In this document: piece by piece, positions 15,609 to 17,681 of the stretch
Layout: every line of letters starts with the position of its first letter
Numbering within the stretch: the stretch's first letter is position 1
Source: Rhabdochlamydiaceae bacterium
GTDB taxonomy: Bacteria > Chlamydiota > Chlamydiia > Chlamydiales > Rhabdochlamydiaceae
Assembly (NCBI GenBank): GCA_047459655.1
Contig: JAJREF010000001.1
Coordinates: forward strand, 352,001-416,000
Reading direction: 5' to 3'
Length of the DNA: 64,000 bases
Translations under genes and position numbers: made by a program
The notes under the pieces: generated by a model
Told to the model about the DNA's origin: nothing
The model's input: the letters and a program-made list of their open reading frames with translations, nothing else
The model's database searches: none

Positions 15609-16151
15609 TCAAGATCCTTGCATACTATGATTTTTTTGTAGTTCTGGTTTCTTTTTAGCTCCTGGAGCTAAAACAACCGATAAACTTCTTCCTAACATCT
15701 TTAGTGGCGCTTCAGGGGCTGCAATATCAGAGAGGTCATCACACATGCGGCGTACAACCTTTCTCCGAACTCGGTATGCATCATTTCCCTACCCCGGAAC
15801 GTACACGTAATTCTAACTTTGTTTCCCTTCAAAATAAAATCCCTGGCATGTCTTCAGTTTTGTTGCAACATCATGCTCATCGGTATTAGGCTTTACCTTA
15901 ATTTCCTTCACCTTAACTTGGTGTTGGGCCTTTTTATTCTCTTTGTCTTTCTTCGTCTGCTGGTAGCGGAACTTCCCAAAATCAACAATCTTACAAACAG
16001 GAGGTTCAGCTGAGGCAGAGATCTCAACGAGATCCAAACCTACCAACTCAGCTTGTTGAAGCGCTTCAGCAAGAGTTAAAACTCCTAACTGTCCACCATC
16101 TTTATCAATAACCCGCACTTTTGGGGCTCTAATTTCTCTATTGACTTTCAA
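15609..16151 (-). CDS. infC: Translation initiation factor IF-3, split by indels
   Basis: [13 protein letters not shown]...LDLVEIS...[17 protein letters not shown] start. Confidence 0.95.
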
Positions 16152-17589
16152 GCTCTTTTTTCAACCTATCAATCAGTGTTTCTATTTTCATCGGCTCAGG
16201 TGCACTCGCACCATCAGGCCTTACCGAGAGAGTTTCTTAACTCTATTTCTCGATCCCCCAAAACAATACTATAAGGAACCCTTTCGCGCAATGCATGATG
16301 CATTCTCTTACTCAAATTTTCTTCGCTAAGGTCTATCCCTACTCGTATTCCCTCTTTATTGAGGGTAGATACAACATGTTGTATCTGTTTTTTCTTAAAA
16401 CCTATGACCCTGACTTGCTCGGGTGCCATCCAAAAAGGCAATTTCCCTTTGCAGGTCTCTAAAAATATCGCGACAAAGCGCTCTAAAGAAAAAATAGAGA
16501 CTGCACGATGACCTCGCGATCAAAATGCACACTCAAAGACGGCCCTTTCCACCTTCTCCCTAAGACATCAATCAAGTGGAATTCGATTGCGGAAACTGCC
16601 TTTTTCTCTTCTTTTGCCTCTATCTGACATTCTTCTAAGGCTTCACGAAGCAGTGCTGCATTTTTTGAGTGCAAAACTACTTCATAATCAAAGGAAAACA
16701 TTTTAAGGATTTTTACGATGAATTGCAAGGAAGAAATTAGTTCACGTAAAAGTTCCTCTTTTTTAAAGGGACTATAGGCTTGATCGATAAATCCGTAAGG
16801 AAGGTCTAAAAGCCCCTCCATTCCTTCCCCTTCTGGCAAAGGTAAATAAGCTATTTCAGCCGTACGCATTTTTCTTTCCTTCGCAAGATGCAGATGAGTA
16901 TCAAACATCTCTTCTAAACTCAAACTAGGCGTTGTTATAAACTGAAAATTTTGCTTACCAAGCTCCTCTTTCCAAAAACCGATCAATATTTCTTTGAGCT
17001 TTTCTCCCCTTGGAAGCCAAATCCAACCAGATTCTATTTCATCTAAAAGATCGAGCTCTTTAATCCACCTTGGATAGTGACGCTCGCCTATATTTTCCCA
17101 CTCTTTGACAAACTCTTTTAATTCAGATTTTTCAAAAAAAGCGGTTCCTACAATACGGAACCCGCCAGAAATAGGGATCATCTCAAGTAGTTTAAAATGG
17201 GTTACATCTGAGGTTTTTGTAGGCAGCAAGAACTCACAGATATCGACAAAATCCCCTACCTGAACAAGACGGACCAAAGGATCTTCTATGATAGAAACTC
17301 TCTCTTGAAGATCCTCTCTATCTAATGATGCAAAATATTCTTCAGCATTCCGGGGGACCATTTCCATGATGCGAAAAGGAACCGCCTTTTTGCTCTTCTG
17401 GCGCATGTTCTCTTCTATCAACATAAGAGATTCTTTAATGGAAGGCTGTAAGACCAAAAAATCGTAATAAAAACCCCAAGCAGTCGGGGTTCCACCTTTT
17501 AAGTAAGCTTGAGGGAATAGCTCTAAAACAGCAGCTGCCATTAGCTCTACGCACCCACCTCTAAGAGAATCTAAATTTTTATTGAACAT
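16138..17589 (-). CDS. Degenerate threonyl-tRNA synthetase-like protein (editing domain, shortened core, anticodon-binding domain)
   Basis: MAAAVLELFP, GFYYDF, IKELDL, WLPRG, LERFVAIFLE and LPFWMAPEQVRVI all align with ThrRS, but the catalytic motifs are missing. About 480 aa, with indels near the C-terminus. Confidence 0.85.
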
Positions 17590-17607
17590 TCTTAATTTGT
17601 GATAAAA

Positions 17608-17681
17608 TGGGATATAGCTGACTCGAACAGCTGACCTCCACGATGTCAACGTGGCGCTCTAACCAACTGAGCTAATACCCC
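17608..17681 (-). tRNA. tRNA-Val(GAC)
   Basis: GGGGTATTAGCTCAGTTGGTTAGAGCGCCACGTTGACATCGTGG...GTTCGAGTC. Confidence 0.95.

Follow-up and report, generated by a model that had tools for sequence, protein, structure and literature searches.

A conserved, catalytically dead threonyl-tRNA synthetase paralogue ahead of infC in Chlamydiales, enclosing a predicted promoter

Bacterial threonyl-tRNA synthetase (ThrRS; TIGR00418, with the structures 1QF6 of E. coli and 1NYQ of S. aureus) is the closest described relative of the protein reported here. The mitoribosomal protein mL39 derives from the N-terminal part of ThrRS, and E. coli thrS carries infC promoters inside its coding sequence. As for synthetase paralogues, SLIMP is a dead copy of seryl-tRNA synthetase (SerRS) that forms a heterodimer with the mitochondrial SerRS2 (PMC10817482), HisZ has a class II synthetase fold without adenylation chemistry (PMC9437257), and the duplicated ThrRSs T1 and T2 of Anabaena have products that heterodimerise (PMC4787780). 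In the present work, a stretch of 64,000 nt of a Rhabdochlamydiaceae bacterium (GCA_047459655.1, contig JAJREF010000001.1, positions 352,001 to 416,000; hereafter the window) was analysed, in which a ThrRS-like open reading frame (ORF), termed pseudo-ThrRS, lies between tRNA-Val(GAC) and infC. A preliminary description, made from the letters of the window, had proposed a catalytically dead but conserved ThrRS paralogue acting as a tRNA/mRNA-binding regulator or a trans factor. The dead, conserved paralogue was borne out, as its orthologues keep at most two of four catalytic residues with a ratio of nonsynonymous to synonymous substitution rates (dN/dS) far below 1; the regulator or trans factor was not, and an internal promoter-like element had been missed.

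Compared with these systems, pseudo-ThrRS shares with bacterial ThrRS the order N2-linker-class II core-anticodon domain, the fold and the thrS slot before infC, and its N-terminus resembles the TGS-less enzymes of 565-590 aa, the nearest type; however, it has lost the zinc ligands, the motif 2 arginine, the ordering loop, the editing histidines and the acceptor-stem hairpin. It differs from trans-editing factors of the ThrRS-N2/AlaX type in that none of 129 orthologues has all four HxxxH and CxxxH residues. Like SLIMP, it is a synthetase paralogue whose active site has collapsed and which selection maintains next to an active copy, but SLIMP supplies a tRNA-binding domain that its partner lacks, whereas in this case the working ThrRS has all its parts, the pseudo-gene is frequently lost and the pairing is putative. 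A non-catalytic class II fold is shared with HisZ and with the Pol-gamma chain that we take to be the accessory subunit (structural matches 5m8h, 1z7m, 5c53 and 8d33), although those have other parent synthetases and established partners, and pseudo-ThrRS retains an editing-fold domain. Two bacterial ThrRS genes per genome are likewise found in Anabaena, where, in contrast, both are enzymes, one charging and one editing, while pseudo-ThrRS is without either site. The dead N2 fold and linker helix recall mL39, which is without the class II core that the pseudo-ThrRS family always keeps. Moreover, the predicted promoter resembles those of E. coli infC in lying inside the upstream thrS coding sequence, but it is placed about 550 nt upstream, fixes six codons across the order and outlives the gene. 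Pseudo-ThrRS descends from ThrRS but does not qualify as the enzyme, and would function in the manner of SLIMP or HisZ while being neither. No description of a chlamydial pseudo-ThrRS was found in the open literature, subscription journals lying outside this scope, and the portions retrieved of two reviews of synthetase paralogues (PMC5388404 and PMC9437257) contain no mention of 'chlamyd'.

The pseudo-ThrRS coding sequence (16138..17589, minus strand, about 483 aa) runs from an ATG at 17589 to a TAG at 16138-16140. The features first described at this locus were recovered: a ThrRS-like ORF of some 480 aa between tRNA-Val and infC, a start just past the tRNA (17 bases beyond the end called by ARAGORN), a first stretch of about 370 unbroken codons (368, with a stop at 16483) and an overlap with the infC start, which is of 14 nt at the TTG (16151). 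The tRNA-Val(GAC) gene (17607..17682, minus strand), directly 5' of the ORF, was found upstream in 124 of 128 orthologue loci, and the two are probably co-transcribed. After the first frame, a second one contains the LERF...MAPEQV segment and the greater part of the anticodon domain (PF03129, E 3e-11), and the last 32 residues are back in the first frame, so that two apparent single-base errors divide the sequence into three pieces (an intact orthologue, L008, has 486 aa). Frameshift 1, at 16488, lies in a T run that is one base short, and contigs X2 (191 bases, otherwise identical) and X3, from other runs, have one additional A there; frameshift 2, at 16237, is one base extra, with one base fewer in X3 only. 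These contigs are of low depth, X1 spans neither position, and X1 and X3 also deviate by one base within infC. As the contigs from other runs differ at these positions and the orthologue of the congener G002 is a single ORF of 486 aa (82% identical to the window protein), both frameshifts are most likely assembly errors. Furthermore, the assembly of the window (G000) is full of single-base errors, which also break infC, rplT, pheS and the working thrS; the ORF is thus no more broken than the essential genes nearby, as had been stated.

The domains of the window protein, all on the minus strand and with approximate limits, were compared with E. coli ThrRS, on whose sequence the numbering was checked; the roles of the numbered residues are those that we presume them to have. 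The motif readings first given agreed with this alignment. In the N2 domain, of the SAD/editing fold (17135..17589), which has the lowest dN/dS of the protein and a family motif E-M-x-P/R-x-N-A, the editing residues are lost (H73>G, H77>E and H186>L, besides K156>L), D180 and C182 being retained. The linker helix (17089..17134) has two lysines (E. coli 230 and 234) conserved under free codon choice, and the motif 1 region, the class II dimer surface (16930..17088), keeps W266, G270 and P296. The catalytic core (16430..16929) is stripped: the ordering loop and hairpin are deleted and the zinc, ATP and threonine residues are lost (R363>L, H385>Y and H511>V, H309 deleted, C334>F or deleted, the zinc ligands thus reading F/Y/V), the motif 3 scaffold being kept. 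As for the anticodon-binding domain (PF03129; 16141..16414), described earlier as kept, most of it is present, but R583 has become H, and the domain is dispensable in the family. The TGS domain is absent, as had been noted, but this is not a sign of decay, many intact ThrRSs of 564-593 aa being also without it.

The same losses were found in a family alignment of 129 distinct orthologues, with 22 chlamydial working and 95 other ThrRSs as controls. None of C334, R363, H385 and H511 was kept in 64 copies, one in 63, two in 2 and three or four in none, while all four were present in 22/22 and 95/95 of the respective controls. Similarly, none of the editing residues H73, H77, C182 and H186 was kept in 58 copies, three in one copy and all four in none, whereas the controls retained them nearly without exception and the editing site of the chlamydial working ThrRS was intact in 22/22. 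Taken singly, C334 appeared in 2 of the 129 copies, H385 in 53, H511 in 5, R363 in 7, and H309 and M332 of the ordering loop in 0 each; Y205 of the acceptor-stem hairpin was deleted in 128, Y348/R349 were kept in about 10, and the anticodon readers R583, E600 and R609 were found in 9, 71 and 59, respectively. Column occupancy was 0.90 for N2, 0.95 for the linker, 0.93 for motif 1, 0.90 for the motif 2 region and 0.97 for motif 3, compared with 0.27 for the ordering loop, 0.21 for hairpin 318-331, 0.40 for the acceptor-stem hairpin and 0.58 for the anticodon domain. Within motif 1, W266 and G270 occurred in 108/129, yet hairpin 318-331 was mostly deleted. The anticodon domain was present in 70 copies and absent in 59, orthologue length varied from 291 to 606 aa, and forms of 590 aa were also dead. 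With the TIGR00418 model (cut-off 383.65 bits), L008 reached 175.9 bits, while the longest dead form, L029, passed at 449.8 and would be misannotated. As judged from these alignments, pseudo-ThrRS lacks the charging and editing residues.

Selection on the protein was measured by the Nei-Gojobori method in 13 independent orthologue pairs (62-99.5% identity). In all 13, dN/dS lay between 0.09 and 0.24, that is, not near 1, which together with a structure model had been among the checks named in the preliminary description. The pooled values were 0.144 for N2 (95% interval 0.123-0.165), 0.157 for linker plus motif 1, 0.184 for the core and 0.213 for the anticodon domain. Between G000 and G002, pseudo-ThrRS had a dN/dS of 0.092, at the 69th percentile of 217 genes (median 0.073; working thrS 0.034), in a comparison covering about 400 kb of the 1.6 Mb of G002 with an in-frame filter that may lower all values somewhat; without this filter the value was 0.161 (92nd percentile), inflated by out-of-frame stretches at the frameshifts (infC 0.23). 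Conserved residues outside the promoter (D344, P25, F39, G147, E373, E381) use free codons. By these measures, pseudo-ThrRS is under ordinary purifying selection as a protein. The AlphaFold2 model of the G002 protein was a confident, single ThrRS-like fold (predicted local distance difference test, pLDDT, 92.8; predicted template modelling score, pTM, 0.88), whose best structural match was S. aureus ThrRS (Z 32.6, root mean square deviation 5.3, 476 aligned). Conservation in a small patch of N2 and linker (E. coli numbers) amounted to 95% for M139, 78% for N143, 62% for H150, 82% for K230 and 81% for K234, the last two occurring in 28% and 37% of other ThrRSs. The net charge was near neutral or acidic (family median -3, window -16), which fits a protein partner better than RNA.

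A copy without the motifs stood before infC in 48 loci of the family and the order, that of the window included; one of them is truncated by a contig end and another has a frameshift. The carriers span Rhabdochlamydia, Rhabdochlamydiaceae, Parachlamydiaceae, Simkania and Chlamydiales, several being labelled 'Verrucomicrobia', which was taken as the submitters' label. An atlas search gave matches in chlamydial clusters only, and databases name the family threonyl-tRNA synthetase or hypothetical. For absences, the DNA upstream of infC was taken from 60 of 79 genomes, mostly without a listed match in a 251-genome search, a sample that is biased towards absence; the gene was present in 33 of the 60 (17 of 19 families), with one open frame in 32 of these 33, and absent in 27. 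Among the 27 absences, tRNA-Val stood 30-319 nt from infC in 16 and 812 nt away in one, another lay at a contig edge, and nine had no tRNA-Val within 3 kb, seven of them in family f28 (1.0-1.4 Mb), taken for Chlamydiaceae and kin. Presence changes 11 times on the tree of the working enzyme, at least seven of the changes being forced by well-supported branches. By this distribution the pseudo-gene is ancestral, and lineages keep it whole or delete it cleanly. No relocated copy was found by the query used in genomes without the slot copy, 10 of 10 such genomes being searched. The 812 nt from tRNA-Val to infC in locus L142 (G101) had no profile match and are possibly a decayed remnant or an unrelated insert.

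A working thrS elsewhere in the genome had been anticipated, and a gene with all motifs was located at G000:C5, about 112850-114710, by a six-frame motif scan and PF00587. It keeps TGS, HTSAH, DLCRGPH, SGHW, KPMNC, HRHE, QDDAH and HRAV and is 90-95% identical to the G002 enzyme, so it is no stray contig in an assembly that is 81.6% complete with 5.8% contamination. Downstream of it are a ParA ATPase and a UPF0137 protein, presumably of the pGP6-D family, and parA adjoins in 65 of 74 loci. The run of working thrS, parA and UPF0137 gene (G000:C5:110900-114710; L037), the latter two homologous to chlamydial plasmid genes, hints at plasmid-borne import; the part of PMC7846284 consulted treats chromosomal parA as plasmid-derived, without mention of thrS. 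The pseudo copies formed one clade (support 100), and the working copies nested away from it in two trees (97/96 and 99/95 support), with two 567-aa proteins (P0074 and P0109) as sisters of the working ThrRS. W266 was present in 108/129 pseudo vs. 0/22 working copies, and a two-residue stretch kept by the pseudo copies was deleted in 22/22 working ones. Furthermore, 11 conserved columns matched outside ThrRSs compared with 2 that matched the working copy, the outside ThrRSs (outgroup) having been chosen by likeness to the pseudo profile, and intact thrS in the order tRNA-Val(GAC)-thrS-infC was found in 7 of 61 assessable metagenome loci of other bacteria. The native thrS was likely displaced by an imported copy. 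In the chlamydial working ThrRSs (L037-L056, L075, L076), the position of W266 holds Ile in 19/22 and never Trp, and residues 150-151 are missing. In one genome (G198, 97% complete) no working thrS was found, only a dead copy of 357 aa; the latter was rejected as an active enzyme and the case read as an assembly gap, the congener G235 having a working thrS.

The predicted sigma66-type promoter inside the ORF (16700..16737, minus strand; ATTTCTTCC) consists of a -35 element TTGCAA (16728-16723), 17 nt and a -10 element TAAAAT (16705-16700), about 550 nt before infC. It occupies codons 288-300, under ISSLQF, the best-conserved stretch of the protein. In a scan of the single window, three such sites were found vs. 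3.5 expected, no more than chance. Across the 129 orthologues, however, its codons were near-fixed: ATT 100/102, TCC 91/93, TTG 114/116, CAA 96/97 and TTC 95/99, against background frequencies of 0.48, 0.16, 0.20, 0.60 and 0.25, respectively, and the synonymous rate (dS) was 0.086 here vs. 0.47-0.83 elsewhere in the gene. Among 121 loci, the -35 hexamer was TTGCAA in 95, and the -10 hexamer TAAAAT in 56, TAAGAT in 17 and TAATAT in 12. The sliding synonymous profile dipped at codons 277-312 and 469-486, less so at the first codons and at 205-216, and mildly over the 3' half, and showed no further clear element. After deletion of the gene, the motif is still found ahead of infC in L161 (with a score of 19.1 against at most -6.8 in 20 shuffles), L164, L172 and L179; it was weak in four f28 deletion loci (L131, L132, L135 and L136), two of them under the shuffle maximum, and the other 19 of the 27 deletion loci had no clear promoter match. 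No scoring match to the motif was seen in E. coli or at any of 11 intact thrS loci. The element agrees with the sigma66 consensus given in PMC3333780; for C. pneumoniae, the supplement of that paper places infC starts 98 and 246 nt upstream, in C. pneumoniae coordinates only. The element is predicted to drive infC-rpmI-rplT-pheS. Where it persists in deletion loci, the motif is an intergenic relic 20-140 nt before infC.

Published expression data were available for two relatives. In Waddlia, WCW_RS04425, beside infC, had normalised means of 3644 in reticulate bodies (RB) and 2973 in elementary bodies (EB), while the other thrS, WCW_RS00105, had 917 and 710, respectively (PMC6090853); much of the signal over WCW_RS04425 could come from the internal promoter. 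In Protochlamydia, pc0701 (thrS_1, listed with the anticodon domain only) reached a log2 RPKM (reads per kilobase per million mapped reads) of about 15 vs. 9-10 for thrS_2 and 11-12 for infC (PMC5451489). The RNA over pc0701, about 8-10 times as abundant as that of infC and one of the highest signals, could represent an abundant leader or a small RNA made from the internal promoter, or else reads of the tRNA precursor.

The reading preferred here, with a probability of roughly 0.4, is that pseudo-ThrRS is a non-catalytic, dimerising accessory subunit whose first candidate partner is the working ThrRS, that particular partner taking about half of this figure. Under it, a native thrS of the order tRNA-Val(GAC)-thrS-infC would have been relieved of charging by a second, probably imported thrS before the sampled chlamydial families split, and would then have lost its active sites. 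The parts that stay near-constant across copies are the N2 domain, the linker helix, motif 1 and the stripped class II sheet; the RNA-reading parts are what the family sheds, motif 1 and the small N2/linker patch what it keeps. N2 is retained (occupancy 0.90) even though it is encoded upstream of the promoter. Motif 1 would allow pairing with itself or with a ThrRS subunit, and the working surface may be the reshaped N2-hairpin/linker patch of M139, N143, H150, K230 and K234. Pseudo-ThrRS would tune rather than complete its partner, because the working ThrRS is whole and the pseudo-gene is often lost. Several results weigh against such a subunit. No column of the working ThrRS (0/638) segregates with presence of the pseudo-gene over at least seven independent changes (best p 6e-5, kin not being independent), hairpin 318-331, which we take to be part of the dimer surface, is mostly deleted, and the working ThrRS is complete in all domains, so complementation of the SLIMP type is not needed. 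Moreover, a tree in which the two chlamydial copies are sisters passes the approximately unbiased (AU) test (p 0.127), so that import is no more than likely, most family-specific conserved columns belong to the promoter and most others are fold residues, and pc0701 is marked as not detected in the EB proteome, where thrS_2 and IF3 were detected (PMC5451489). A bolder form of the accessory-subunit reading, which we regard as unlikely, would have pseudo-ThrRS as a regulatory subunit of the imported working ThrRS from the root of the chlamydial order, the first bacterial SLIMP-like heterodimer, throttling the supply of threonyl-tRNA, e.g. across the developmental cycle, and produced from an almost leaderless mRNA that is released from tRNA-Val and is coupled to IF3.

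Some of the same evidence would suit an ORF kept as a passenger for its DNA, namely the internal promoter and the infC start overlap, with a partnerless protein selected only to stay translated and folded. Near-fixed promoter codons with the low dS given above, a stop overlapping the infC start or within 5 nt of it in 66/126 loci, repeated gene loss and absence from one EB proteome make this a serious alternative, if still a rather unlikely one: deletion has left a spacer of 30-319 nt in 16 loci, and some deletions (L161, L164, L172, L179) keep the promoter, so the latter does not require the ORF; N2, encoded 5' of it, is under the strongest constraint and kept throughout, dN/dS is like that of an ordinary gene, and 60/126 loci have a gap of 10-318 nt to infC. 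It seems doubtful that the dead N2 and linker helix dock on the ribosome in the manner of mL39. Residues 1-167 of the model do match chain 7 of 3j7y (human mitoribosomal large subunit; Z 17.4, root mean square deviation 2.5, 155 aligned), presumably mL39, and the linker lysines K230 and K234 are more conserved than in other ThrRSs, but the ThrRS editing domain is matched better (Z 22.0), common ancestry accounts for the resemblance to chain 7, pseudo-ThrRS is not basic, its place beside infC-rpmI-rplT is ancestral and uninformative, and the gene is repeatedly and cleanly lost.

A tRNA-Thr/mRNA-binding regulator using its anticodon domain, as E. coli ThrRS does on its operator, was part of the preliminary description and is improbable. 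Although that domain is under selection where present (70/129, dN/dS 0.213), with E600 in 71 and R609 in 55 of the 76 rows reaching it, it is missing in 59/129, R583 stands in 8 of those 76 rows (9 of all 129), the Y205 hairpin is deleted in 128/129 and Y348/R349 are kept in about 10/129; in addition, the conserved Pro25 codon lies at most 122 nt from the tRNA end in 112/124 loci, which leaves no room for an operator, the leader after tRNA-Val being too short in most loci, whereas intact genes in the same order have 89-275 nt. The trans factor proposed alongside failed on the editing residues, all four being kept in 0/129. Residual chemistry has very little probability: the N2 fold is kept, with D180 in 74/129, C182 in 50/129 and R520 in 103/129, but no copy keeps H73/H77/C182/H186 complete, Y173 is found in 0/129 and K156 in 13/129, no new invariant polar set replaces the lost residues, and the editing site of the working ThrRS is intact in 22/22. 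Finally, a decaying pseudogene, which the two frameshifts of the window and the length spread of 291-606 aa might suggest, is largely refuted, as the frameshifts are absent from other runs and such errors are equally common here in infC, rplT, pheS and the working thrS, dN/dS is 0.09-0.24 in 13/13 pairs and 32 of 33 positive loci have a single open frame.

Dead copies of essential enzymes are rarely kept by host-dependent bacteria with genomes of 1.2-3 Mb. The chlamydial ancestor has been dated to 700 My to 1 Gy (PMC7846284), and by that dating pseudo-ThrRS has thus been retained very long. The protein, misannotated as a second thrS, would give the short list of pseudo-enzymes among the synthetases a member derived from ThrRS, and its predicted promoter would be a clear example of a promoter that passes for a protein motif and persists after the gene around it is lost. 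The locus also suggests that the chlamydial ThrRS is a replacement and not the inherited enzyme.

Regarding the flanks of the ORF, the first piece of infC (15813..16151, minus strand) opens with the TTG in the 14-nt overlap and is followed by rpmI, rplT and pheS. Over 126 loci, the stop of pseudo-ThrRS overlaps the infC start or is at most 5 nt away from it in 66 and is separated from it by 10-318 nt in 60, and the infC start codon at the aligned position (window 16149-16151) is TTG in 92, CTG in 11 and TTA in 9, non-AUG as in IF3 autoregulation. At the other end, the start codon of pseudo-ThrRS is 0-26 nt from the tRNA 3' end in most loci examined (window 17589-17607), and tRNA processing would therefore yield a near-leaderless mRNA. 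An Rfam scan of 15300-18000 returned the tRNA and one chance match only, with no leader RNA family, and a terminator-like hairpin at 17162-17143 was at chance level. Elsewhere in the window, at 11777-13604 (plus strand), a long ORF broken by a frameshift lies upstream of tRNA-Ser; it has a signal-like start and repeats rich in cysteine (LEDCKCHE), and its orthologue in G002 (L361) is intact with 495 aa. In the same assembly, an identical peptide (…SSGHLNQAIYDFSQA) occurs at 41528 and 175603 of contig C5, 134 kb apart, through either repetition of a gene or duplication in the assembly; C1 also has two tRNA-Ser(GGA) at a distance of 3 kb, and tRNA-His is found on both C1 and C4.

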